A DNA stretch of 64,000 bases, from positions 112,262 to 176,261 of the IMG/VR virus record IMGVR_UViG_3300033068_001142; one strand, 5' to 3'. This stretch comes from a virus (taxonomy: Duplodnaviria; Heunggongvirae; Uroviricota; Caudoviricetes). Every line of letters begins with the position of its first letter. Position 1 is the first letter of the stretch. The position numbers were made by a program, and so were the translations under genes. This document shows positions 3,601 to 57,430 of this stretch, piece by piece. Under the pieces are notes generated by a model that made no database searches, was not told the DNA's origin, and was given only the letters and a program-made list of their open reading frames with translations.

Positions 3601-6600
3601 TAGAAGTAACAACAGAAGATATTGTAGTTGATATTGTTAATGATATAGATGTTAGTAGTACTGGTAATATTGATGTCGTAGTTGAGGATAATAATGAATT
3701 AGATATTACTGTAGCTAAGAAAGAGTTTGTTATTGTTGGTGATGATATTTATGTACCGATACTGTACGAGGATGTTCCTCAATGGATGAAAGATTTAGTT
3801 AGTTTATCTGTTAACCAAGCAATTGAAGGTGTTAGTACTAGTAATCTGGACCAATTAAATAGTATGTTATCTGAATTTGCTACAAGTTATGTTCCATTAA
3901 ACCAGTATACACAAAGTATATTGGATTTAAGTAATGCTGATGTTAGTTTGCATGCAGTGATTGAGACGTTAAATAGTAACTATGAAGATGGTATTACTAG
4001 TGCTAATAGTCAGATCATTACGTTGCAACAGACTAAAGCAAGTAAAGATGAAGTACTAACTCAAGTGATTGAGACTATTAGTGCACAATTGACTGATGAT
4101 ACTAGCGATATTGGGGCTATAATAGCTAGGCTAGATCAAGCAATAGTTAGCAGCAATCAGTCTAGTGCTTTAAGTTATCAAGCGATTACTGCTACATTAG
4201 AAAGTATGGATGGAGAAATTAGTGGGAATGCAACTGCTATCAATACTCTTAGTAGTTATGTTGGTGTAGTTGATGGAGCGGTTACAGGTACTGGTTTGTT
4301 AGCTGATGTGGCTATTTTGCAGAAGCAAAATGATGGTATTATAGAGACTACAAGTGGGACATATAAGGTTATGCTTAACCCACAAGATCCAAATACTGCT
4401 CAGTTAGTTACAACTGCAGAGCCGTACGCTAGTTGGAAAGCTAGTGAAACTCCTGGGAGTATAGATAATAGACTTGCTCATATTGGGGATGTATATATTG
4501 AGTATGTTAGTAATGCTAATGGAATGAAAGAATATGTAGCTAGTTACAAATTTATAAGAACTGCTGTTGATAGTACAAGTCCGTATGCTACTGATAGTGA
4601 GGGGTTTACTTGGGCACTGGTGGTTGACCAAGCTGCACAAGATGCTTATGAACAAGCGTTAAATGCGTTTGACTTAGCTGATGACAAAAGAAGAGTATTC
4701 GTTAATACTCCATATGTTCCTTATGATGTAGGAGACTTATGGCTTGTTCAAGCTGGAGCAAGTATAATCGGAACTACACAGGGTGGAAGAGTAATACAAG
4801 CCGGAGACATGCTAAGATGTGCTGAAACTAAAACTGGTACTGGATTATACGAACACAATGACTGGATTCCAGCTGACAATTATAGAGAAAGTATGGAAGC
4901 AATCAAGAGCAACTTACAGGAACAAATTGATGGAAAAGTAGACACATACTATCAAGGAACAGTGCCTACTGGGATGACAGTATTAAATAATGGGGATTAC
5001 TGGTATTGTACTACTGATATAAGTACGTATAAAAAAGGAAAAGTGTACAAGTATGTTCATGCTACTACATCATGGGTAGAAACTGCTGACGTTAGTAGGT
5101 ATGCATTCGATACTGCTGATGGTAAAGCTTCAATATTTACTAGCACAAATGTCCCTACAACTGGGTATAAAGTAAATGACATGTTAATAGTTATAGGTTC
5201 GTTTAATAATGGAACTGCAACGTTTAGTGATGGAGTCGTGTTGTCATCTACTACAACCAGAACTACTGGATTTACTATATCAGACTGGGTTAAAAAGATT
5301 AATGATACAGAAGATTTAGATGATTTTGTTGGAAATATTTATCAGCCAGAAATAAATACATTAAAAGCACAAGTTGATGCTAAGATAGAATATTGGTTTC
5401 AAACTACTGATCCAAAAAGTGCTTGGACTACAGATGAAGAAAGAGCTAAGCATAATGGTGACGTATGGTATAACACGACTCCAGGTAATAATATTAGTCA
5501 ATATTATTCTAGTTCTACAAATAGTTGGAATCTAATAAGTGATAAAGCTGCGTTAGATGCAATTACTGCTGCCAATGCAGCTAGGCAACTAGCTGATAGT
5601 AAAGTAGAAGTTAGGTATGGTACTGCTGCTCAAAGAGATACAACAAGTAATGCTTGGACTGATGCTGAAAAAACAAGTAATATTGGTGACTTGTGGATTA
5701 TTAGTGATGAGGGTGATGACCAGAACAAACAGTTCAGATGGACTGGTACTGGATGGTTTGATATTCGAGATAAAAAGATTATATCTAATGCAAGTGCAAT
5801 TACTGCTTTAAAGTCATATGTAGCTATGAATGGGCACACAGCAGGAGGAAGTACTAGCTTGTTGCAAGACCTTAATGCAGAGATATCTGCAGGTACTACT
5901 AAAGTAGACAGTAAGTTTAAGTACGATAGTACTTTAAGTGTAGATGGTATTAACTACAATAGTGGGTTTGGACTTGCTACTAGTTTGACTTCTGGTTCTG
6001 GATTAACTACAGGACAAAGTGAGTTCTGGATTAAGGCTGATAAGTTTAAACTAATGAGTGCAGACGGAAGTAAGAAAAGTAGTTACAGTCCATTTACTGT
6101 TGATGCTACAACTGGGGATATAACATTTAATGGTAAAGTTAGTTTTAATAGTATAAACAATGCTCCAAGTGTTAGTAGTAACCTGTTATATAATAGCGAA
6201 CCATCTATTAGTGGAGGAACTAGAGGATATGTCTTAGGGTATAATGATACTGGTATTACTGCTGTTATTGGTCAGAATGTAGGTGATTGGGCTCCTTCTG
6301 GTTCTTCGTCTATTTATATACATTCTACTGGTACACCAGCTCCAAATACTGTATTTGAGATTAATTCAGAAAAGAAAATACCAATTGTTGGAGGTAAACC
6401 ATATTGTGCATATGCTTACTTTGGTGCTCATAGATGTACTGCTCAGCTAATTATAGGGTTTTATGATGCTAGCGGAAACATAATACAGTTCATTAATGGA
6501 CCTGATGCCCCTGCTGCTGGAGGTGGAAAATCATTATCAGGATATGCTTTATCAATTATAAAAGTTGTTGCACCATCTAATGCTGCTTCTGTATTGATGA

Positions 6601-48165: not shown

Positions 48166-48544
48166 TGTATTCTCCTATAATTACTTCTATTCTGGGATTT
48201 GTTTTGTCTTGTGAACCTACTGAGTATGACTCGTGTTTGAGATATTGAACGTTGTCATCTTTGATGACTCCAGCTTTCTTAAGAGCATCATTCAAGAATT
48301 TAGAACCTAAGGCAGTAACATTAGGTAAGTCACTGATAATTGATTTGAAGTAATAAGTGTATGCTATCTGGTATTGGTTGAATGTAATGTTAGCTGGAAT
48401 TTGTTTGATAATAATATCTTCAATTTCCTGTTTAACCTTGTTACTAGTGAAAAAATGAGCATTTCTGTACCAATTCATACCAAGAAATATAGTTTTCTTT
48501 CCTGTAGTATGATATACAGGTAGTGTTAATCTAACTTGTTGCAT
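48128..48544 (-). CDS. RusA-like Holliday junction resolvase
   Basis: DLPNV...KFLNDALKKAGVIKDDN...NPRIEVII. Confidence 0.7.
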   Translation of the reverse strand: MQQVRLTLPVYHTTGKKTIFLGMNWYRNAHFFTSNKVKQEIEDIIIKQIPANITFNQYQIAYTYYFKSIISDLPNVTALGSKFLNDALKKAGVIKDDNVQYLKHESYSVGSQDKTNPRIEVIIGEYNEPSNTSDNTTK

Positions 48545-48560
48545 TGAAGAGGTTCTTCCT

Positions 48561-49151
48561 TTAAATATTTTTAGTAGTAGATGGTTCTTTGAAAAATTCA
48601 GGAATATGCTGATTGATAAGTAACCTAATAAATAGAGCTATTCTATGAATATCATTAATGGGAAGTAACAAATGTTGATTAGTTTCTAACTTCTTTAGAA
48701 TCTCATAAGATAGTATGTCCCTAGTTTTTAATATATAGATAACATGAGAGTCTACTCTTGAACTATTTCTTAGATATGACATGTTTTTTAATTGATCATT
48801 AGTAATAAGTTTGAATCCGTTTTTCTTGATACCGTCATAATTGATGAATCTAGAACAGAATTTTTGTTCGGTTGTTATGCTAATTGGGTTCATTCCAGTA
48901 AATTTATCTGATAAGCCAATAGATCTAGCATAAGAAGAACCTTTAACTACTGATAAGGGTAATTCATGGGTTACTTGTTGTGGGTTATTGCTTCTTTTCA
49001 TAAGCTCAGAGTATAATGGGGCTACATATGAATGAATATTTTCAGTAGAAGCTCTTGGTTTAGTTATAACTAGGTGAATAGTGGGGTTAGATGAAAGTTC
49101 TGGAAGAATATATTTATCTATTTTTGTAGGTGGAATTGTTAAAGTAATCAT
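48561..49151 (-). CDS. Hypothetical protein downstream of the retron ncRNAs
   Basis: 196 aa; AAGGA RBS; overlaps the upstream ORF. Confidence 0.5.
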   Translation of the reverse strand: MITLTIPPTKIDKYILPELSSNPTIHLVITKPRASTENIHSYVAPLYSELMKRSNNPQQVTHELPLSVVKGSSYARSIGLSDKFTGMNPISITTEQKFCSRFINYDGIKKNGFKLITNDQLKNMSYLRNSSRVDSHVIYILKTRDILSYEILKKLETNQHLLLPINDIHRIALFIRLLINQHIPEFFKEPSTTKNI

Positions 49152-49438
49152 GTTGAGATCCCTTCTCCTATAAGTGGTACATTATATAATTGTTCCAATT
49201 TAATTACAGTTTTAAGTAAATGATAATTTTGAGGGAGAAATTCAACGTATGTTTTCCTTCTAACTAGTTTTTTTGATTTATACTTTTCAAAGGTAAATAA
49301 TGTAAAGCTGACTCCACAGATATATAGGTTAGATGTATATACACCTAATAGTGTGCCAGAGTTCTTATACTTTTCGTAAAGTTTCATAAGGATGTCTCTA
49401 CGAATAAATTTGTAATGTTTTGATCTAAGTTCGATCAT
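49148..49438 (-). CDS. Hypothetical basic protein immediately downstream of the retron ncRNAs
   Basis: 96 aa; AAAGGA RBS. Confidence 0.5.
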   Translation of the reverse strand: MIELRSKHYKFIRRDILMKLYEKYKNSGTLLGVYTSNLYICGVSFTLFTFEKYKSKKLVRRKTYVEFLPQNYHLLKTVIKLEQLYNVPLIGEGIST

Positions 49439-49466
49439 TGTTTGTCCTTTAAATTAAATTTTAGGA

Positions 49467-49677
49467 TTATAGCAGACATACCTACTCGCCAGCAGGTTAC
49501 TGCTGGAGCGCTGAAGGTGTGGGGGGATTCTACTTTGGGTCCCTGGCCTACGGCCTGGGTCCCTTTGTAGAATCCTGTAACACCTTCATATAGTTAGCCC
49601 TTGTACATAGCCGATTCAAACTACTAAACTAACCACAAAGTGTTATACTTGTTAAAGTCTAGGTATGTCAGCTATAA
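49467..49677 (-). ncRNA. Retron msr-msd-like ncRNA, cassette A
   Basis: 18-bp terminal inverted repeats (49467-49484 / 49660-49677, 1 mismatch); unpaired G at 49659; long hairpin 49512-49588 plus 7-bp hairpin 49489-49506; TATAAT at 49685-49690. Confidence 0.8.
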
Positions 49678-49745
49678 CCCTTGGATTATAGTGTGAAATT
49701 AATACTAAATGTTTTTTTGTTCATACATTTATTGTCAAATGTTGT

Positions 49746-49792
49746 GAATTAACCTTGTTAAACTGCCGAAAACTAAGCAGATAAGTTAATTC
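49746..49792 (-). ncRNA. Small structured RNA between the two retron cassettes
   Basis: 8-bp IR GAATTAAC/GTTAATTC, inner CTGC/GCAG stem; TATAAT at 49801-49806. Confidence 0.4.
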
Positions 49793-49815
49793 GAAAGTCT
49801 ATTATAAGTCACAGG

Positions 49816-49984
49816 TATACTGTATGTACTGGCCTGAGGCGGGATACAGGATGCATGTACTGCAGCTCAGGTATGAGACGCTTTAGCTGCTCGAAGAGCA
49901 GCGAAGCGTCTTATGTTACACAGTATGATAGATAACCGATACGAGCTACTCCATGTAACGGGGCTTCGTTCTACATACAGTATA
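49816..49984 (-). ncRNA. Retron msr-msd-like ncRNA, cassette B
   Basis: Perfect 13-bp terminal IR (49816-49828 / 49972-49984); unpaired G at 49971; hairpins 49873-49914 (GCTGCTC-GAA-GAGCAGC core) and CCTGAG/CTCAGG; TATAAG at 49992-49997. Confidence 0.75.
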
Positions 49985-50005
49985 ACTGTAACTTATACGA
50001 GAAGA

Positions 50006-50830
50006 TTATTTAGGTCTTCTCGATTTTGGTAACATCATTTTAGAGGCAGTAACTAGTCCGCCTAATGATGGTCCGTTACCTTGATGTTTTGCTGCTCTGA
50101 TTTTCTTCTTAAGTTTTCTAGATGGAGTTAGAGATTCTGAACCTACTTGAATACCTAAGATCTTACGATTGCCGTATTTTGAATGTCTCATACGAGTTTT
50201 CTTAGGGTTGATCGTAAGTTTGTATTGAGCAAAGATATGAGTTGCATAAGTAACTAATCTGTTAAGAGTATCATAAGATTGTTGGTGGATACTAATTTGG
50301 ATATCGTCGGCATAGCATGTAACTACAGCTTCTGGGTCGATGTACTTAACAAGAGTGGTTAGTTCTTTGATTGGTTTAACTAGGTAGATTGCAGAAAGGA
50401 TAGGACTAGTTGCAAAACCTTGAGCTAAGCAGTTAGTTTCTTTCTCAAAATAGATATCTAAAGGTTTGATGTCGCAAGATGCAATCATCTCGTTGCTGAT
50501 TGAATCGAAACAGTTGCTAATGTCTAGAGTTAGAGTGTGGTCTAGATTTTTGTGAAGATTTGCACAAGTAACGATGTTTCGACCTGGAATAAATCCGTGA
50601 AAGATTTCCGATTTTAGGTGTTCAGCTTCATATGAAATAAAATGTTCAACTAATTCAGGAAGGATTTTTCGTTGGGCTTTAAGTAAGTCTGCAGAAGGAG
50701 CACAGATTTTTCTAGTCTTACCGTTTTTCTTCTTGATGTAGAATGTTCGATAAGAGAGATCTAGGACTTTCTTAACTCGTTTAGGTTTAATTGTATCAGT
50801 TCCAGCCGTCGTCGTAGTCAACGAAATCAT
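50006..50830 (-). CDS. Retron-type reverse transcriptase
   Basis: KKKNGKTRKICAP, HGFIPGRNI, region X-like CANLH, LDISNCFDSI, QGFATSP, YADD, region Y-like ILG; probable start MISLT at 50830, overlapping the JAB gene end. Confidence 0.88.
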   Translation of the reverse strand: MISLTTTTAGTDTIKPKRVKKVLDLSYRTFYIKKKNGKTRKICAPSADLLKAQRKILPELVEHFISYEAEHLKSEIFHGFIPGRNIVTCANLHKNLDHTLTLDISNCFDSISNEMIASCDIKPLDIYFEKETNCLAQGFATSPILSAIYLVKPIKELTTLVKYIDPEAVVTCYADDIQISIHQQSYDTLNRLVTYATHIFAQYKLTINPKKTRMRHSKYGNRKILGIQVGSESLTPSRKLKKKIRAAKHQGNGPSLGGLVTASKMMLPKSRRPK

Positions 50831-52283
50831 ATATAGACCTTCCTGTATTATTTGGTATTGTTGTAACAATTCCAGGAGCATTGGTTAAAGATTCTTGTTC
50901 TTCATCATAGATATTAACATATAATTCTGTGATATACCCAATTAGTTCTTGTTTTGTTACGTCAGATTCAGTTTCACCAATAGATGCAGACATTTTACCA
51001 TAGTAGTAAGTATCTAATTCATCGTGGTGTGCAATAAGTGCTTCTCTTGTTAAAGCTTCAAGTTCTTCTTCTGTATAAGGAAGAATTTCACAAACTAAGA
51101 ATTTACCATTGTTTTTAACTTCTGTTTTCTTAGCTGGAGCTTTGTAATCATAAATTTCTTTTAGTTTTTCTTCCATCTCAGTTTTGTTAAGTTTAGCAAT
51201 GTCTTCATTTTTGAATGGGAGTTTATGAAAATTCATGTGTTTTTCATAATTAAACTTAAGAGTTTGTAATGGGTAGTCATAGTCAGCGATAGCTAATTTG
51301 TAAGGAGGCGTTTCAGCATTCGGCACCCAAGCACCATTAATCCATGAACCAGTGAACCCACCACCTGTGTACTTTGTAACGGTTGTTGTAATCCTGGTTT
51401 TCACATTCTCAGATCTAATTAATTGAATATTTGGATCTGGAAGTAAAGTTATTAATGAGTTAAGATTTTGAATCATAGCTTGTGGAACTAATGAACTGTC
51501 TTCTTTAATTTTAAGAGGAGTACCAGATGGAACTACTCCAAAAAATTGTTGTACTGATGATAAAACTGGAGGAGTGTAAGTATCATTTAGAGTGATAGCT
51601 AAACACCTACCCTTAGTATATGTCATGTCATTAGTTTCGTATGCGCCGTTAACTAATCTGTATTCGTAGTGAGCTACATTGCATTCTGTTCCGTCAACAG
51701 CTAAGATTCCAGAGAATGAAGGTTTGTCAACACCAGATTTTAATGGAAATACGATACCGTGATTAGTTGTATTAGCATCTAGGTCTGTTCCTGAGAATCT
51801 TTGAGAATAAGATGACCCTGGGTGTCTGTGTAGCGTTCCTACATCAACAGAGATTGGTTCGAATGGTACACCAAATAATGTTTCTAATTCTGTTTTGAAT
51901 GAAGTAGCTAAGATTTGATTAGTAATCATATTATGAAGAGGTGTTAATTTCTCCGATAATTCTGATACGTCTTTCATCTCGAAGTCTACATGAGCTGCAG
52001 ATACGAATTGTTCGTAATTGAAATAACAAGTTGGAACTGCTATGTCAAAGAATCCACCATCATCGAATGTGTGTCTGAAAACTAACATCCAGTAATGCAT
52101 TTGGAATTCGTTTGATTTAGCATTTGGTCCAGATTGTTCGTACATCTTCTGGATAGTACTGTGTTTTTGTAGGATGATACCATGATTTTTTAAATCAATT
52201 GGCAAGTGCGCTCTAGTTTGACCTGTAGAGGCAGGAGTAGTAAAGCCTACTGATCCGTAGATTGTTTTATATTCAGTTAGCAT
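50796..52283 (-). CDS. JAB/MPN-domain metallo-isopeptidase with C-terminal extension
   Basis: GTLHRHPGSSYSQRFSGTD fits the JAMM HxH-x7-9-S-x2-D motif; probable start MLTEY at 52283 (track start 52322). Confidence 0.7.
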   Translation of the reverse strand: MLTEYKTIYGSVGFTTPASTGQTRAHLPIDLKNHGIILQKHSTIQKMYEQSGPNAKSNEFQMHYWMLVFRHTFDDGGFFDIAVPTCYFNYEQFVSAAHVDFEMKDVSELSEKLTPLHNMITNQILATSFKTELETLFGVPFEPISVDVGTLHRHPGSSYSQRFSGTDLDANTTNHGIVFPLKSGVDKPSFSGILAVDGTECNVAHYEYRLVNGAYETNDMTYTKGRCLAITLNDTYTPPVLSSVQQFFGVVPSGTPLKIKEDSSLVPQAMIQNLNSLITLLPDPNIQLIRSENVKTRITTTVTKYTGGGFTGSWINGAWVPNAETPPYKLAIADYDYPLQTLKFNYEKHMNFHKLPFKNEDIAKLNKTEMEEKLKEIYDYKAPAKKTEVKNNGKFLVCEILPYTEEELEALTREALIAHHDELDTYYYGKMSASIGETESDVTKQELIGYITELYVNIYDEEQESLTNAPGIVTTIPNNTGRSIYDFVDYDDGWN

Positions 52284-53625
52284 TGTTTGCCTCTGATGGT
52301 GTTTTTTCTTTTTCTTTCCCATTTTGTTGTCCTTTAATTGTTTGGTATCTTGCTTCGATTTCCATTAGACTTAGTTTGAATGTTTCAGTCATGTATGTGA
52401 TATAGTCTGCAAAATTAGCGATTCTCTCAAGTTCTTCTGGAGTTGGAGTATCTTTCAGTGTTTTTGGTAATATACCGATTTTGTCATAGATTGTTGTACA
52501 TTTCTCAATAGATTCTTTAGCAAAGATTACTGAAAGATCTGAATGAGATGATGAATTGTATGCTGAAGCATAATTACAACAATGTAAAGATGAAATACCT
52601 TTTAGGGTACTTTGAGATTCTCGTCCAGTACATACTGAAGCGAATGTTAGACTTTTTTGTAAAGAGTCTGATTGAATATTGCATGAAGCTGATGGAGTTA
52701 AGAATGTTCCGTATAGTGAGTTTCTAGATTTCTTAAGTAAAGATACACCGTACTCAGGAGCGAATACTCCATTAACCATAATTTGGTGAGCTGACAATAA
52801 GTATGTATCACTCTTTGATGATCCTATATTGGTTTGATGTACATAATTTAATTTTAAGAATTCTTTCTCAGTGATTTCGTCTGCTTGTAGTACGTGATAA
52901 CTTAGGCCTTCAAATGAGTTCCTAGCATAACTTCTAGTTGTAGCTCTATCGCTAGGGGTAGCAATTGACTTATTTGTATAAAAGCCTTCAAGGTTGTTTG
53001 GAGCTTTAATTTCAACATCCTGATGATTTGAACATTTGATGATGTTGTTTAATAAAGTCTCACAGTATTCTTTGTCTCCCTTATCTGCGTCTGGTCTTTT
53101 GAAACCATCAGAGAATAAACTGTTAATGTTTGAGTAGAAGAACAATAGAACTGTGTATTTATCGTTGAATACTTCTTTGTTTTTCATATAACTAATAGGA
53201 GTCAGAATATGATAAGGATTGATAAGTTTATCACCTTTTCTTAGGACTGCACCATAGAAATGAAGTCCGGCTTTCTCCTTGAACTTGTTGATTTCAACGA
53301 TAGCTTCTTCGAATGAAAATGTACCATTAAGAGTTAGAATTTTCTTAATAACATTCTGGAAGATGTATCCGTAGTTTAGAGGTTTGAATTGTCTTCTGTT
53401 GTTCGTAAGCTCAGCAAAACTACTCATTTTTGGGTCAACTGGAACTAATGTTCCTAAAGTACTTGGATCAATAAAATACTTAGTTGGGTCTGATGAAGTA
53501 GCCGTCATAGATTGCATACATTTCTTCTGGAAGGCTTCTACTTCGTTTAGGTATAATTGACCTAAGATGTTTTGTTTAGGAGTAGTAGCTTGAATAGCTA
53601 GGTAATCTGGTATGTATGAATACAT
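52273..53625 (-). CDS. Unknown protein between E1 and JAB genes, possibly prokaryotic E2-like
   Basis: 450 aa; C-terminal ASVCTG resembles the xxCxG active site of prokaryotic E2 families; supported mainly by gene context. Confidence 0.35.
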   Translation of the reverse strand: MYSYIPDYLAIQATTPKQNILGQLYLNEVEAFQKKCMQSMTATSSDPTKYFIDPSTLGTLVPVDPKMSSFAELTNNRRQFKPLNYGYIFQNVIKKILTLNGTFSFEEAIVEINKFKEKAGLHFYGAVLRKGDKLINPYHILTPISYMKNKEVFNDKYTVLLFFYSNINSLFSDGFKRPDADKGDKEYCETLLNNIIKCSNHQDVEIKAPNNLEGFYTNKSIATPSDRATTRSYARNSFEGLSYHVLQADEITEKEFLKLNYVHQTNIGSSKSDTYLLSAHQIMVNGVFAPEYGVSLLKKSRNSLYGTFLTPSASCNIQSDSLQKSLTFASVCTGRESQSTLKGISSLHCCNYASAYNSSSHSDLSVIFAKESIEKCTTIYDKIGILPKTLKDTPTPEELERIANFADYITYMTETFKLSLMEIEARYQTIKGQQNGKEKEKTPSEANNAN

Positions 53626-53626
53626 G

Positions 53627-55150
53627 TTACTCTCCTACAACTAAAGCTTGCATTTCTCTACTAATGTTGAAGAAATATTTGGTTGCTTGTGTATTTTCTG
53701 GTGTGAATGTATAATCTGACCATAATAAGTCTTCTTGTCTATATGCTTTCTCAGATAAGATTTCTAAGAAACCAATAGCCATTCTAATCTGATTGATAAA
53801 GAATGAGTTAAGTTGGATTAGTCCGTAAGTTTCCACTTGTAATGAGTCATCAGCTTTAGGATTTATATATAATGATGCTGTGTTATTAGCATGAGTTGCG
53901 GAAATGAAGCTACCTAAAGAAGATAGGAAGTTTCTGTTACTGATTGATGGAGCACCATAAACGATCACATCAGATTTAGTCTGAGAATTTTCATCTAAAA
54001 GGATGTTTGGGATATCTGCATGTGACTCTAAGTATTGTTCTTTGTAAATGATATACTTAGATAGAGTACGAAGGTATCTGTCAACTAATGCGATTTTAGG
54101 AAGTTCAGCTGCGTTGATTGATTCGTATACTTTAGGTGAAATTGGGAATCTAAAGATGTTTGAGAAGTCTACGTTGTCTTTCTCATAAACATAGACTTCA
54201 TCGAAGATGTTTGTAATATCAAAAAATTTACAGATTTCGTTTAGCCAATAAATTGTATTTGTCCCTGTTCCACCAACACCAGCGAATATGATTTTAAGCT
54301 TAGCTTTCTTAACTGTTTTTAATAAAGTTTCAATATGAGTTAAATCAAAGTTAAGCACATCTTTCAATATAGAGTGAATTGGTATTTGGTCTATGTTTAA
54401 TAAAGATGCTGTAAATGGACTAATTGCTATGTATTTACTTGGGTTATAGGTTATTTCACTGCTATTAGAACTATTTGGAACATCATGGATAGCGAGAAAT
54501 GGAAGGAATGTGTCCAGAACTATTTTACCATAAGCTGAATTACCATCATTTATAGCGCTTGGTCTGTAGTATCTTGTATAGATTTGAGTTCTTAAATGAG
54601 TATTAAAATTGTAAGTTTCAACTGATGGGATTGAATAGAATTTATTATCTGAACCAAATTTGTTGAATACAGCCAAATCTGTACTGCTAATGTAGGATGC
54701 GTTAGCACTAGTTAGTGCTCTGAATACTATTTTAGGAAAACCTATTAGCTCGCTTTCTTGATCATTCTCAGCATAATACATTGGGTTAGCTATTTCTGCG
54801 TATGCTGATATATCAGTACTTCTAGTAGACCAAGAATCACTTCTGATAAGCTGAGGTAATAATTCTATCTTACCTGTAGCTTCTGAGAATATAGGATATA
54901 GTTTAACTCGTCCTGGAAGTTTTGATTCTTTCTCAAGTAGTGTTTGTAAGTCGAGATTAGAAACTACTTCGAAGAATCTTGAGTATAGGCTTTCTTTTTG
55001 AATATGAGCTGCTGTGTAGTCGATTTCGAAAATTAATGGCAATGAAAGTACTGATCCTGTATGTTGCATTGGTATTAATTCTGGTTTAAGTCTTAGAAGA
55101 GTTTTAGTGTTTGAGCTTAAAAGTTGTTTTATATCATATGTTATTGTCAT
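53627..55150 (-). CDS. ThiF/E1-like adenylating enzyme with unknown N-terminal domain
   Basis: IIFAGVGGTGTN (GxGGxG), YEKDNVDFSNIFRF (D-x-V-x2-SN-x2-R), APSISNR, NQIRMA. Confidence 0.75.
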   Translation of the reverse strand: MTITYDIKQLLSSNTKTLLRLKPELIPMQHTGSVLSLPLIFEIDYTAAHIQKESLYSRFFEVVSNLDLQTLLEKESKLPGRVKLYPIFSEATGKIELLPQLIRSDSWSTRSTDISAYAEIANPMYYAENDQESELIGFPKIVFRALTSANASYISSTDLAVFNKFGSDNKFYSIPSVETYNFNTHLRTQIYTRYYRPSAINDGNSAYGKIVLDTFLPFLAIHDVPNSSNSSEITYNPSKYIAISPFTASLLNIDQIPIHSILKDVLNFDLTHIETLLKTVKKAKLKIIFAGVGGTGTNTIYWLNEICKFFDITNIFDEVYVYEKDNVDFSNIFRFPISPKVYESINAAELPKIALVDRYLRTLSKYIIYKEQYLESHADIPNILLDENSQTKSDVIVYGAPSISNRNFLSSLGSFISATHANNTASLYINPKADDSLQVETYGLIQLNSFFINQIRMAIGFLEILSEKAYRQEDLLWSDYTFTPENTQATKYFFNISREMQALVVGE

Positions 55151-55246
55151 TGTGTTTTCCTTATTTAAATTACTAGGGCAAGAACCCTAGTGTTCAGGAT
55201 TAGAATCCTGAGTTGGTGGGAAGTTTAAGGTTTAAGTTAGGGAAGA

Positions 55247-55369
55247 TTACCATCTTCCAGACTTGCCCTTTGCTTGACTCACTGCACCATCAGCTACTCT
55301 AACAGTAGTTGTTGTGTCAGCTCCACCAGTTACTTCAGATATTAATGCGTTTACGTCGAAATCTGCCAT
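55247..55369 (-). CDS. 40-aa peptide, candidate modifier or substrate of the E1 enzyme (not in ORF track)
   Basis: Strong RBS AGGAG overlapping the upstream stop; MADFDVNALISEVTGGADTTTTVRVADGAVSQAKGKSGRW. Confidence 0.65.
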   Translation of the reverse strand: MADFDVNALISEVTGGADTTTTVRVADGAVSQAKGKSGRW

Positions 55370-55370
55370 G

Positions 55371-55721
55371 TTATTCTCCTTGAGTTTCTGTTTTAGTTTC
55401 TGCTTCAGCTTCACCGTCTAAACCACTAATTGGTAAAGCGATTGCTAATTCAGATTTGAATTTGTATAATTCAATTTTAGCTGTTGGTCTAACCATTAAG
55501 ATGCCGTGTACAGCTTTCTCAACTTCAGCTTTAGTTTTTGGTCTTTGTTGACTTACTCTGTCGTCTACTACTAAAACGAATTTAGGTGTAGTTTTTTGTT
55601 TTTTAGCTTTTTTGTCGCTGATTGCAGCGATTGCTTCTGCTAATGAAGATAAAATGTCATTTGATTGTGTCATTTTGATTTCCTTATTATTGAATTGATA
55701 TGTTAGATTCTCGAGAATCAA
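55371..55721 (-). CDS. Hypothetical protein
   Basis: Probable start MTQSND after an AAGGA RBS; phage-like codon usage. Confidence 0.55.
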   Translation of the reverse strand: MILENLTYQFNNKEIKMTQSNDILSSLAEAIAAISDKKAKKQKTTPKFVLVVDDRVSQQRPKTKAEVEKAVHGILMVRPTAKIELYKFKSELAIALPISGLDGEAEAETKTETQGE

Positions 55722-55750
55722 CTTAGTTTAATGACGATTTCGGTCCGTGA

Positions 55751-56284
55751 TTACATATGTTTTAAAAGAAGTTCGATAGAGGATTTAGGAGCTTTAGTTA
55801 AAATTTGTTGTAAAAATTTACGGATAACTGTTCCTGAATTTCCATCAAAGTTTGGGAAAATTGGAGTTAAATCTACTGAATTCTTAATTATTGATGAATG
55901 TTCCAAAAGTAAGTCTGAATAGAATTGTCCCTCTTTTAACCCGTACTTACCTGCTTCTGATGGTTTGTTATGTGTGAAAAGAGTGAAAGATTTACGATGG
56001 TCAAATCTCCAACTAGATAGAATAAAATCTAAGTTATCAATCCAAGCTATATTGTCCTGATGGTCCTTGATTGGTAAAACGATTGCGTTTGTAAATAATG
56101 ACTGAATGTAGTTTAGATTATCTCTAGCAAGTATTGGGTTCTTACGTTTATCAGAGCTAATTCCTACTATAATTACTGGAATGTATCCTTCAGAAATGAT
56201 ATGCTCAATAAGTTTGATATGTCCGATATGCATTGGTTGGAACCTTCCAATTATAACTCCATAGCCGTTTTTAGAATCTAGCAT
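55751..56284 (-). CDS. NMN adenylyltransferase (NadM-like)
   Basis: IIGRFQPMHIGH (HxGH), KRKNP, SGTVIR. Confidence 0.8.
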   Translation of the reverse strand: MLDSKNGYGVIIGRFQPMHIGHIKLIEHIISEGYIPVIIVGISSDKRKNPILARDNLNYIQSLFTNAIVLPIKDHQDNIAWIDNLDFILSSWRFDHRKSFTLFTHNKPSEAGKYGLKEGQFYSDLLLEHSSIIKNSVDLTPIFPNFDGNSGTVIRKFLQQILTKAPKSSIELLLKHM

Positions 56285-56320
56285 TTGTAAGCTCTAAGTC
56301 TGGGGGAAGTTGTTCAGTGA

Positions 56321-57430
56321 TCATTGTTCTGCCTTCAGTAAATAAATGTTGCTAATAGCTTTGAATGAGAATGGTCTATCTAGTTGTTTGTAAACACGCC
56401 CTTCTGAGATTGTTCCAGGATTCATCGATTGACCTTCAACATGAGTTAATAAATCAGATAGTTGAAGTTGGAATGGTTGGAAATTACCTAAGATTGGAAC
56501 ATGTTGGATTTTGTATTTAGAACAGAAAGCTTGTCTTTCTTTAGGTAGAAGGTATTTTTGTTCCTTAATGTCAAATACATCGAATACATAGTATTCAAGT
56601 GTAGTAACTTTCTCATGATTGGCTTGGATTTTAGGTCCGATTAATTCACCTTGAATTGCATAGCCTTCAGGGATTTTAGATTCTAAATCTAATTTGATAG
56701 CCATATTCCAGAAGTCTGATTGATCATATACTGAGATTTTACCACCGTTATTGAATGTTGTTGACTGATTAGCTGATGGTTTAAGTTCAAGATTTCTAGA
56801 GCATACACCGAAATGGTATGGTTTAACTTTGAATCCAAAGAATTGTTTGATCTTGTCAAAGAATGAAAGAGTTTTCTTGATTTTGTAACAAGTCATAGAT
56901 GACCCATCTAATTTAAGAGTTTCTTCGAATTCAGTATTTGGATCTAATGTTTGCCAAAGGTGAGTTAGATTTTGGATTCGTTCTTGGTCTGTTTTAGGAA
57001 TGAACGATGGAAATGAGCCACGAGGTTTACCAGCTTTAAGTCCTGGTCTTTGGTCAAAAGTTTGCGCTGCTACGTCGTACTTTATAACGTTTAACATATC
57101 AGAGTAGTCTTCTAACTGTAAGTTTGTAATCTCTGGGAACATTGATAACGGTAAGGCTAATCCTTGCGATAGTACACCTTTCATTTTCATTGTTTTGATT
57201 CTGTAACCTTCAGTACCTTCGAAAGTAGTTGTTTTCTTTAAGAAAGCAAATCTAGTGTCGGTAGCTGGGATGAAACTGTCTATCTCGAAGAATAAACAAT
57301 CATCTCCGATTTGGAATTCAGTTTTCTTTACGATTACAGTCCATCCTCCTATTACGGCAAGAGCAATGTTATCGCAGTCTTTAATTGGGACTAAGTTATC
57401 GATTTTTCTAATTGTTACGAGTTTTCTCAT
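56321..57430 (-). CDS. RNA ligase (DRB0094/Rnl2-like family)
   Basis: MRKLVTIRKI N-terminus, FFEIDS, KLDGSS (I), QGELIG (III), VFDV (IIIa), EGRVYK (IV), FKAISN (V). Confidence 0.88.
   Translation of the reverse strand: MRKLVTIRKIDNLVPIKDCDNIALAVIGGWTVIVKKTEFQIGDDCLFFEIDSFIPATDTRFAFLKKTTTFEGTEGYRIKTMKMKGVLSQGLALPLSMFPEITNLQLEDYSDMLNVIKYDVAAQTFDQRPGLKAGKPRGSFPSFIPKTDQERIQNLTHLWQTLDPNTEFEETLKLDGSSMTCYKIKKTLSFFDKIKQFFGFKVKPYHFGVCSRNLELKPSANQSTTFNNGGKISVYDQSDFWNMAIKLDLESKIPEGYAIQGELIGPKIQANHEKVTTLEYYVFDVFDIKEQKYLLPKERQAFCSKYKIQHVPILGNFQPFQLQLSDLLTHVEGQSMNPGTISEGRVYKQLDRPFSFKAISNIYLLKAEQ

Follow-up and report, generated by a model that had tools for sequence, protein, structure and literature searches.

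The window, a 64,000-nt stretch of viral DNA (positions 112,262 to 176,261 of the IMG/VR record IMGVR_UViG_3300033068_001142), comes from an uncultured 205-kb phage that carries a set of four genes in the order peptide-E1-MID-JAB, all on the minus strand. They encode a small peptide, an E1-like enzyme, a cysteine protein in the middle of the set (MID) and a JAB/JAMM metallopeptidase (Table 1). The initial annotation had placed these four open reading frames (ORFs) at 50796-55369 from the letters alone, and all of them are there, with the start of the JAB gene overlapping the end of the MID gene by 50 nt. The motifs that it read are also real and conserved, namely the JAMM motif in 43 homologues of JAB, the cysteine of VCTG in 81 homologues of MID, and the GxGG, SNxxR and lysine of the E1 in 52 sequences. 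The neighbours of the cassette are a reverse transcriptase (RT) gene, an NMNAT-like gene and an RNA ligase gene. The surroundings are a nucleotide-metabolism and replication region, with ThyX as a frequent neighbour.

Table 1. Features of the cassette and its immediate neighbours, with positions counted in the window.
Feature	Position	Strand	Size	Basis
Retron-type RT	50006..50881	-	291 aa	Pfam, PADLOC, NCBIfam
JAB/JAMM (MPN+) metallopeptidase	50796..52322	-	508 aa	MPN fold, JAMM motif
MID	52273..53625	-	450 aa	81-sequence alignment, column counts, position between E1 and JAB
E1-like (ThiF/MoeB-type) enzyme	53627..55150	-	507 aa	Atlas matches, Pfam ThiF in relatives, hhalign, MAFFT, column counts
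Two stem-loops	55195-55210 and 55173-55190 (feature 55173..55210)	-		RNA fold
Precursor peptide gene	55247..55369	-	40 aa + stop	ORF, Shine-Dalgarno, homologous small ORFs, alignment, codon differences
Accessory protein	55371..55721	-	100-116 aa	PHROG 3710 match, homologues, alignment

The cassette is confirmed by its recurrence. The same order was found in the window and in all 20 other distinct metagenomic phage loci examined, although MID has no tblastn match in one of the 20 and two of them end before JAB. This order is kept though the identity of the E1 drops to about 27-30% across loci, and wherever MID was detected, it lay between E1 and JAB. In 20 of 20 other loci, the E1 homologue is directly preceded on its own strand by an ORF of 38-53 aa; because this ORF also has an invariant glycine, a Shine-Dalgarno site and the codon pattern of a gene, the cassette is far beyond what chance would give. 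We found it in no paper and in no GenBank phage record.

The small ORF begins with an ATG at 55369, which is preceded at a distance of 8 nt by an AGGAG Shine-Dalgarno site. Its product starts with an amphipathic stretch, is rich in Thr and Ser in the middle and has a conserved end, AKGKSG, after which only the tail RW follows (55250-55255, with the stop codon at 55247-55249). In the alignment of 21 sequences, Gly38 (55256-55258) is the sole invariant residue and the Ser just before it is nearly so; beyond the glycine there are 1-7 variable residues, and the rest of the peptide varies freely with a Thr/Ser/Ala-rich composition. Since Shine-Dalgarno sites are present ahead of about 19 of the 21 ORFs, and since diverged pairs have at least as many synonymous as non-synonymous codon differences (e.g., 18 vs 8), we regard the ORF as a coding gene. 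A candidate tag of 40 aa had been proposed from the letters, and the gene is indeed conserved, with its one invariant feature being the very glycine that removal of RW would expose. The terminal glycine is shared with ubiquitin-like modifiers, and a variable tail of 1-7 residues behind it is the pattern expected of modifiers or carriers that are trimmed by a JAB peptidase. A beta-grasp ubiquitin-like modifier is ruled out: the predicted mature peptide has 38 low-complexity residues, against about 70 or more, and is probably disordered. The phage has no gene of the ThiS/MoaD family.

Between the stop codon of the peptide gene and the start of the E1 gene there is a spacer of 96 nt that holds two stem-loops. 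The region 55145-55255 folds with -24.4 kcal/mol (z = -3.1), and a strong hairpin occurs right behind the peptide stop in about 17 of 20 related loci (z of -2.8 to -8.5). The stem-loops probably keep the ratio of peptide to enzyme high, either as an attenuator or by stabilising the mRNA, and their presence in most loci fits a substrate that is made in excess.

The metallopeptidase is the best defined of the enzymes. Its catalytic domain covers about residues 40-260 (E72, H165, H167, S177, D180), and a beta-rich linker joins it to a helical part at the C-terminus. H165, H167, S177 and D180 are invariant among the 43 homologues and E72 is at least 90% conserved, with 9 residues between the HxH and the serine, and hhalign lines up the JAMM motif with that of a plasmid Cap3. 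The MPN fold and the intact metal site thus bear out the JAMM peptidase call. From the conserved Ser-Gly and the variable tail of the neighbouring peptide, we infer that JAB would cleave after the C-terminal glycine in a Zn-dependent manner.

The assignment of the E1-like enzyme to a ThiF-type domain is supported by several comparisons. Both feature and structure searches in Atlas matched it to ThiF, the structure match spanning residues 270-489. Pfam ThiF was matched by 4 of 34 relatives (best E 1e-5); the E1 of the window itself lies below the score of that model. The nucleotide-binding residues line up in an hhalign comparison of the family with E. coli MoeB, and MAFFT aligns the protein with MoeB and ThiF over the whole adenylation domain, up to the C-terminal helices. 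Residues 1-190 form a variable N-terminal extension, and the conserved core begins at R193-Y194, a pair that is invariant or nearly so. It resembles the RY in the arginine finger (RYxRQ) of MoeB and ThiF, but stands about 97 residues before GxGG instead of about 27 and is not aligned with the MoeB motif by MAFFT. The nucleotide-binding domain is of the Rossmann type and occupies about residues 280-490 (G291xGG, D325, N331, R334, K352, Y398-G-A-P, R406, T419-H420, E440). In the 52 sequences, G291, G293, G294, N331, R334, K352 and R406 are invariant, as are D213, T419, H420 and E440, and the position of D325 holds D or E in 51.

The adenylation motifs had been called intact, which is only partly the case: GxGG, SNxxR and the lysine are invariant, but the site of the Mg-binding Asp (D130 in MoeB, D127 in ThiF) is occupied by Y398, with Tyr in 51 of the 52 sequences and Phe in one. 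Y398 lies inside an invariant YGAP, and the alignment with MoeB and ThiF is free of gaps in the strand that flanks it and in the RNxL motif. Canonical adenylation is therefore not assured. There is also no conserved cysteine, as no column of the 52-sequence alignment exceeds 54% Cys, and a canonical thioester-forming E1 was rejected because the catalytic Cys is absent near the crossover loop, where T419-H420 is invariant instead.

MID belongs to a family of 317 clusters at 50% identity. A candidate CxG active site had been noticed in it, and C332, in the motif VCTG, proved invariant in 81 diverse homologues, together with G125, N136, P290, Y292, N316 and S354; H139, G286, G334 and a His/Asn at 348-351 are nearly invariant. 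No similarity to E2 enzymes was obtained by sequence, profile or fold search: none of the 81 members matches a Pfam E2 family at E<=1, hhalign against a Cap2 gives a probability of 0.3%, and the HPN motif is absent ahead of the cysteine, with SxN(I/V) at 7-50 residues upstream instead. Searches of PDB profiles, Pfam and NCBIfam likewise returned nothing similar, and in the conserved block the AF2 model is of poor quality. An invariant cysteine is not specific to E2 enzymes. We consider MID a candidate acyl carrier or ligase that may be E2-like in role.

The three proteins had been described as the same trio as in Cap2/Cap3, Bil and PRTRC-type systems. This was not supported, as none of them scores as a member of those models, nor does any reach the threshold of a curated ubiquitin-system model. 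With the NCBIfam models of PRTRC, only a faint PRTRC_ThiF match was obtained on the GxGG region of the E1 (11.7 bits against a cut-off of 144.75) and none with the other cassette proteins. The PADLOC models of Cap2 and Cap3 matched neither E1 nor MID nor JAB; with RT, NMNAT-like and RNA ligase genes as neighbours, membership in type II CBASS was rejected.

Likeness in roles is another matter. In type II CBASS, the substrate of Cap2 and Cap3 is a C-terminal tail that is unfolded and has Gly or Ala as its last residue (PMC10097602), so that there too an E1-type enzyme and a JAB peptidase handle an unfolded tail rather than a beta-grasp protein. In CBASS, however, this tail is that of the CD-NTase, whereas the phage modifier would be a free peptide of 38 aa. 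Cap2 is an E2-E1 fusion, while the phage E1 and the cysteine protein are encoded by separate genes, the E1 lacks the catalytic Cys and the Mg-binding Asp, and MID has no similarity to Cap2. The phage cassette is also not in a defence island. In the Bub systems, E1 enzymes without a catalytic Cys work through oxyesters (10.1101/2024.11.21.623953). [quoted passage not shown] BilABCD, the bacterial ISG15-like system, is built from parts with the same four roles (a modifier, an E2-like component, a JAB and an E1), and in the Atlas feature search the phage E1 falls near BilD_N/ThiF clusters (score 0.91). BilA, in contrast, is a beta-grasp Ubl, and Bil is an anti-phage defence of the host whereas this cassette is carried by phages. 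Pup is a short, intrinsically disordered modifier whose C-terminus is processed before ligation to target lysines, and in these respects it resembles the phage peptide. Pup tagging, however, involves no E1 and no JAB: Dop processes the modifier, and the glutamine-synthetase-like ligase PafA activates it by phosphorylating a Glu side chain.

The four genes and their conservation, the JAB and E1 folds and motifs, and the invariant Gly and Cys were directly observed. From these we believe that the cassette may be a phage-encoded module for ubiquitin-like conjugation, in which a short linear peptide, probably disordered, takes the place of a beta-grasp protein as the modifier, and we give this reading a probability of about 0.5. 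The chemistry that follows is proposed from the sequences. The 40-aa precursor would be made in excess over the enzymes, as suggested by the strong ribosome-binding site of its gene and by the hairpins that follow this gene. JAB would cut the variable tail (RW here) off after Ser-Gly and expose Gly38, as the comparative data indicate. The E1-like enzyme would bind ATP and turn the carboxylate of this glycine into an acyl-adenylate; since it has Tyr at the Mg-binding Asp site and no conserved Cys, its chemistry must differ in detail, perhaps in the manner of the cysteine-less Bub E1. The activated peptide would pass to Cys332 of MID, near which there are a conserved His and Asn, and then to an amine on a phage or host protein, which is the step we hold least firmly. 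JAB may also undo the modification.

More tentatively, and with less assurance than we give to the module itself, we speculate that this is a widespread and undescribed phage tagging system, in which a disordered tag of about 38 residues is trimmed by JAB, activated by an E1 lacking the catalytic Cys and the canonical Mg-binding Asp, and transferred by a Cys/His enzyme of new fold to host or phage proteins during infection, with wiring to the RT in some lineages. If this is true, tagging could, for example, disable host defences or mark proteins for the phage's own protease.

Several other explanations were weighed, of which the least improbable, though still unlikely, is the biosynthesis of a product on a scaffold peptide, in a RiPP-like or pearlin-like manner. 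The activated C-terminus would gain a building block or be modified by MID, and JAB would release the product and regenerate the scaffold, or remove a protecting tail; an MccB-like peptide-nucleotide is a sub-case. The layout is that of a RiPP operon, with a precursor that has its own ribosome-binding site and hairpin, an intergenic gap and then overlapping enzyme genes, and E1-like enzymes are known to act on linear peptides in the microcin C and pantocin pathways. However, the peptide is variable and has no conserved core residue besides Ser-Gly, the locus has no transporter or immunity gene, no C39 peptidase is encoded in the phage genome, the fold matches are not significant, and a secreted product would have no obvious use in a phage replication module. 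The MccB-like route, which the initial annotation had offered on the strength of a double-glycine-leader-like SEVTGG (residues 11-16), is weak: the GG is kept in only part of the family, and the conserved end of the peptide is Ser-Gly, whereas MccB chemistry requires Asn. A microcin C-type system was rejected on this ground and for the missing C39 peptidase and transporter.

Slightly less probable is a sulfur-carrier pathway, in which the E1 would adenylate the trimmed peptide for conversion to a C-terminal thiocarboxylate, and Cys332 of MID, as persulfide or acceptor, would put the sulfur into a metabolite, a nucleotide or a nucleic acid. QbsE/QbsD/QbsC and CysO/Mec are JAMM-trimmed carrier systems in which QbsD and Mec take a short tail off after Gly, and the proposed JAB step follows the same logic. 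Like MoeB/ThiF-type activators and MoeZ, the phage E1 does without a catalytic Cys, MID has a single invariant Cys, and the position in a nucleotide-metabolism region, often beside ThyX, would suit such a pathway. Against it, the known sulfur carriers have a beta-grasp fold and a Gly-Gly end, whereas this peptide, with its Ser-Gly end, is too short for that fold, and the phage has no ThiS/MoaD-type gene. Within the cassette and next to it, there was no sign of a rhodanese, a cysteine desulfurase or a PP-loop motif, and the Mg-binding Asp needed by MoeB and ThiF is missing. It is improbable that the E1-like protein is a docking subunit that binds nucleotide without being catalytic, comparable to the E1-like domains of cyanobactin heterocyclases, with MID as the real catalyst (a Cys-His peptidase or transpeptidase on the peptide). 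The loss of the catalytic Asp in 51 of 52 sequences and the conserved Cys, His and Asn of MID favour this reading. Against it, one would hardly expect the glycine-rich loop, the candidate arginine finger, SNxxR, Lys and R406 to be invariant if there were no nucleotide chemistry, and the invariant D213, T419, H420 and E440 could supply the missing function.

Just as improbable is that the cassette serves the adjacent phage retron as its effector or regulatory arm, so that the RT and its product control peptide conjugation, or are controlled by it, and the unit is RT plus cassette. The RT is retron-type (Pfam RVT_1, 1.4e-22; PADLOC retron RT_III-A, 6.5e-34; NCBIfam retron St85 RT, 8.5e-30, which is under the cut-off of that model). 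An RT gene lies near the cassette in 8 of the 21 loci: in the window its start runs into the end of the JAB gene, in the close relative L008 the two genes also overlap, and in six more loci it is adjacent (L002, L005, L009) or close (L006, L013, L014). However, no Rfam retron RNA was found in 48500-56500, and 13 of the 21 loci have no RT within the DNA covered, which is 5-7 kb downstream for most; the cassette therefore works without it, and the RT is a facultative neighbour. On the other side of the cassette, the stop codon of the accessory gene lies 1 nt ahead of the peptide ATG, and the two genes are translationally coupled. The accessory protein matches PHROG 3710, a family of unknown function; it has a basic linker followed by a small alpha/beta core, and its family alignment contains no conserved C-terminal Gly. 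Its homologues stand directly upstream of the peptide gene in about 10 loci and are thus not universal.

The window was taken from a 205-kb virus record in IMG/VR, rated as complete by CheckV, and covers its bases 112262-176261. The cassette, which encodes a small peptide, a ThiF/MoeB-like enzyme (E1), a middle protein (MID), and a JAMM/MPN metallopeptidase (JAB), is located within a long minus-strand gene run. Of the genes listed in the table for this run, Pfam and PHROGs named just three (RNA ligase, cytidylyltransferase/NMNAT-like gene, and reverse transcriptase, RT), and the E1, MID, and JAB of the window had no significant match in Pfam, PHROGs, PADLOC, or NCBIfam. Another 20 loci were obtained from contigs with diverged JAB homologues and from IMG/VR loci found by an E1 profile. 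The order small ORF-E1-MID-JAB was identical in the window and the 20 other loci, with the proviso that MID was missed by tblastn in L021 and that two loci end before JAB. The genes of E1, MID, and JAB abut or overlap one another. No match to the cassette was found in 50,697 GenBank phage records by DNA or by JAB protein, literature searches did not turn up a description of such a phage cassette, and the two NCBI-sourced cluster members had no names attached.

Coordinates of the cassette and associated features in the window and in other metagenomic phage loci that carry the cassette (L002 to L025)
Feature	Locus	Coordinates	Strand	Transcription order	Remarks
RNA ligase, PHA02142 OB domain	window	56321-57430	-	1	PHROG 968, 4e-98
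Cytidylyltransferase/NMNAT-like gene	window	55751-56284	-	2	Pfam CTP_transf_like, 5e-6
Accessory 116-aa ORF	window	55371-55721	-	3	PHROG 3710 match, unknown function
Peptide, 40-aa ORF	window	55247-55369	-	4	
Two adjacent stem-loops	window	55173-55210	-		Between peptide stop and E1 ribosome-binding site
E1, 507-aa ORF	window	53627-55150	-	5	
MID, 450-aa ORF	window	52273-53625	-	6	
JAB, 508-aa ORF	window	50796-52322	-	7	
Reverse transcriptase, 291 aa	window	50006-50881	-	8	Retron-type
116-aa-family accessory	L005	3374-3655			
116-aa-family accessory	L006	4626-4943			
116-aa-family accessory	L010	5531-5776			
116-aa-family accessory	L011	6527-6784			
116-aa-family accessory	L012	5409-5720			
116-aa-family accessory	L013	5616-5903			
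116-aa-family accessory	L014	6249-6518			
Accessory family 1	L018	6269-6706			
Accessory family 1	L017	6245-6688			
Accessory family 1	L020	6067-6507			
Accessory family 1	L022	6312-6671			
Accessory family 1	L025	6068-6613			
Accessory family 2	L002	5727-6263			
Accessory family 2	L015	2080-2610			
ThyX	L004	4724-5365			
ThyX	L010	4498-5241			
ThyX	L021	5055-5654			
ThyX	L023	742-1386			
ThyX	L024	5524-6309			
ThyX	L015	136-726			

The peptide is the strongest result of this analysis. An ORF of 38-53 aa is present just upstream of E1 in every locus, and in the alignment of 21 such small ORFs (window and other loci) the sole invariant residue is the Gly that matches G38 of the window, preceded by a Ser conserved in at least 90% of the sequences. 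The tails behind this Gly are 1-7 residues long and unconserved, for example RW, AIA, VMA, K, I, C, or a stretch of seven residues. Over its N-terminal third the peptide is amphipathic, and Thr, Ser, and Ala are abundant in its middle part. A Shine-Dalgarno sequence precedes approximately 19 of the 21 ORFs, and in diverged pairs the synonymous codon differences equal or exceed the non-synonymous ones, which together indicate, at the level of sequence, that the peptide ORF is a translated gene under selection. The ORF that the initial annotation proposed as a candidate modifier is thus a conserved gene across the loci. The same annotation had called SEVTGG double-glycine-leader-like; such a leader was rejected, because only some family members keep the motif and no C39 peptidase is encoded in the phage genome.

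In most loci, the peptide stop is followed immediately by a strong hairpin, with z from -2.8 to -8.5, whereas the enzyme genes follow one another without such a gap, a layout that would be expected if the substrate is produced at higher levels than its enzymes. In one sub-lineage, the slot between the peptide and E1 genes contains a tRNA, which is Met-CAT in L004 (5679-5755) and Gln-TTG in L023 (1768-1843) and L024 (6702-6777). In L005, a 286-aa gene (3873-4733) with a Cys-rich product and an AP2/HNH-like C-terminal region, probably a homing endonuclease, is inserted in this slot, which indicates that the peptide-E1 spacer tolerates insertions.

The JAB family search gave 98 clusters, none of them annotated. 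Searches of JAB against PDB sequences, with the single sequence and with the profile, gave nothing significant, and the Atlas language-model search gave no usable match. Alignment of 43 homologues placed the conserved core at residues ~40-260 and showed a complete JAMM motif, with invariant H165, H167, S177, and D180 and a nearly invariant E72. The AF2 model built from this alignment had a mean pLDDT of 82 (core above 90), and its Foldseek PDB matches at E<=0.001 were MPN/JAB proteins (best E 7e-6), including Npl4, CSN5, Rpn11, BRCC36, Prp8 Jab1, and Citrobacter BubCD. Against AlphaFold-DB, the model matched clusters named "JAB domain-containing protein" with a probability of ~1.0. The JAMM peptidase call made earlier was confirmed in this way for both the predicted fold and the aligned active site.

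Searches of E1 against PDB sequences, single-sequence and profile, also gave nothing significant. Pfam ThiF was matched individually by 4 of 34 aligned E1 homologues (best E 1e-5), Atlas placed E1 beside clusters bearing ThiF and BilD_N, and its low-confidence Atlas model matched ThiF models over residues ~270-489. In hhalign, the E1 and E. coli MoeB aligned at the glycine-rich loop, at D..SNxxR, and at the Lys, and the MAFFT alignment with MoeB and ThiF spans the entire adenylation domain. Judging from these comparisons, the E1 truly has the ThiF fold, although in a divergent form. Its N-terminal extension before the conserved core ranges from nothing to ~380 residues in the 52 family members, in all of which G291, G293, G294, N331, R334, K352, and R406 are invariant. 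A possible RY arginine-finger motif, R193-Y194, is also invariant or nearly so; it sits ahead of the Rossmann domain, within a conserved stretch of ~100 residues. No predominantly-Cys column was found among the 52 sequences. The adenylation motifs had been described as intact; this holds for the glycine-rich loop, SNxxR, the Lys, and R406, but where MoeB (D130) and ThiF (D127) have the Mg-binding Asp, 51 of the 52 sequences have a Tyr, which lies within an invariant YGAP motif. The invariant D213, T419-H420, and E440 could take over the role of this Asp. A non-catalytic E1 is an unlikely rival explanation, with the lost Asp on its side and the retained adenylation residues against it. The predicted complex of E1, peptide 1-38, ATP, and Mg scored 0.01, which is evidence neither way.

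A word-based search with MID found close relatives only. Profile A4, which included the diverged MID copies of related loci, was searched against 1.84 billion proteins and gave a family of 317 unannotated clusters at 50% identity. In 81 diverse members, G125, N136, P290, Y292, N316, C332, and S354 are invariant, and P137, H139, G286, G293, G306, P311, T333, G334, G343, L347, and N351 are nearly so, as is a further His at 349, which stands at 348 in the window copy. The Cys of the CxG site first proposed as E2-like is among the invariant residues, in the motif S-V-C-T-G. Pfam gave no meaningful match for any member, the Atlas language-model search gave no usable match, the profile had no match in PDB sequences, and hhalign detected no similarity to plasmid Cap2. 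The AF2 model was built from 19 close homologues before the deep alignment A5 and was poor, with a pLDDT of 58.7 that drops under 50 over the conserved block; fold searches with it (VIA wide, Foldseek PDB, Atlas, AFDB) found no credible match. In MID, the Cys comes 7-50 residues after an SxN(I/V) motif and is itself followed by helices. The arrangement faintly recalls HPN...Cys of E2 enzymes, a resemblance and not a test of E2 identity. MID belongs to a large unannotated family with a probable Cys/His/Asn active site.

Studies have shown that CBASS Cap2/Cap3 act on an unfolded CD-NTase C-terminus in which only the terminal Gly/Ala is conserved, and that Cap3 cleaves at this C-terminus (PMC10097602). 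Bub E1s have no catalytic Cys and use oxyester chemistry, and the Bub JAB domain cuts its precursor after a conserved Gly (10.1101/2024.11.21.623953). With these precedents, the unusual features of the phage cassette are less of an obstacle; however, the missing Mg-binding Asp has no precedent in Cap2/Cap3 or Bub. In this study, we propose that JAB would trim the variable tail behind the peptide Gly, that E1 would activate the newly exposed C-terminal Gly, and that the invariant Cys of MID would accept or relay the peptide. This scheme is the most economical one, given an invariant Gly before a variable tail and the constant presence of an apparently active JAB and an E1-type enzyme. We give the full scheme a probability of about one half, mainly because of the Asp missing from the phage E1. 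In a less likely rival, a sulfur-carrier pathway, E1 would serve thiocarboxylate formation, for which its likeness to MoeB and ThiF can be cited; no ThiS/MoaD-type gene was found in the phage genome. Scaffold-peptide or RiPP-like chemistry on the conserved peptide is another less likely rival.

To our knowledge, prokaryotic ubiquitin-like conjugation has so far been known as an anti-phage weapon of the host (CBASS Cap2/Cap3, Bil, and probably Bub) or sulfur-carrier chemistry. Here the viruses themselves carry the machinery, and it is widespread, as the size of the MID family alone illustrates. The cassette departs from the textbook in having a linear peptide as putative modifier instead of a beta-grasp protein, an E1 that lacks both the catalytic Cys and the Mg-binding Asp, and a partner enzyme, MID, whose fold could not be recognised. 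Should the cassette conjugate, it would reveal the minimal requirements of E1/JAB-based tagging, offer a compact and genetically encodable peptide-ligation tool, and probably represent a new phage strategy to rewire the infected cell.

The RT is of the retron type (PADLOC RT_III-A, 6.5e-34; NCBIfam retron St85 RT, 8.5e-30), and in the window its gene begins within the 3' end of the JAB gene. Of the 21 loci, only 8 had an RT near the cassette, and rIIA/rIIB-like genes lie between the two in L006. Rfam gave nothing meaningful and no retron RNA on 48500-56500; the promoter/terminator scan was uninformative. By this count of loci, the RT is a frequent neighbour and not a core part, and a retron-coupled function is an unlikely rival.

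The slot upstream of the peptide is translationally coupled and holds alternative accessory proteins or none. The 116-aa family occurs in the window and approximately nine other loci, and begins with a helix that a Lys-rich linker joins to a possibly beta-grasp-like core of ~55 residues (strand-strand-helix-strand-strand); single-sequence and profile searches gave no significant PDB sequence match. It was rejected as the true Ubl, since its C-terminus shows no conserved Gly and many loci lack it. In loci without it, the slot is taken by one of two other families, with proteins of 120-180 aa, either of which could be a partner or a target. For family 1, PHROGs 16673 and 4263 (unknown function) were matched over their C-terminal part, and family 2 had no PHROG match. 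A ThyX-type thymidylate synthase gene (Pfam Thy1 in L004) often lies just upstream of the cassette, which places the cassette in a nucleotide-metabolism and replication module.
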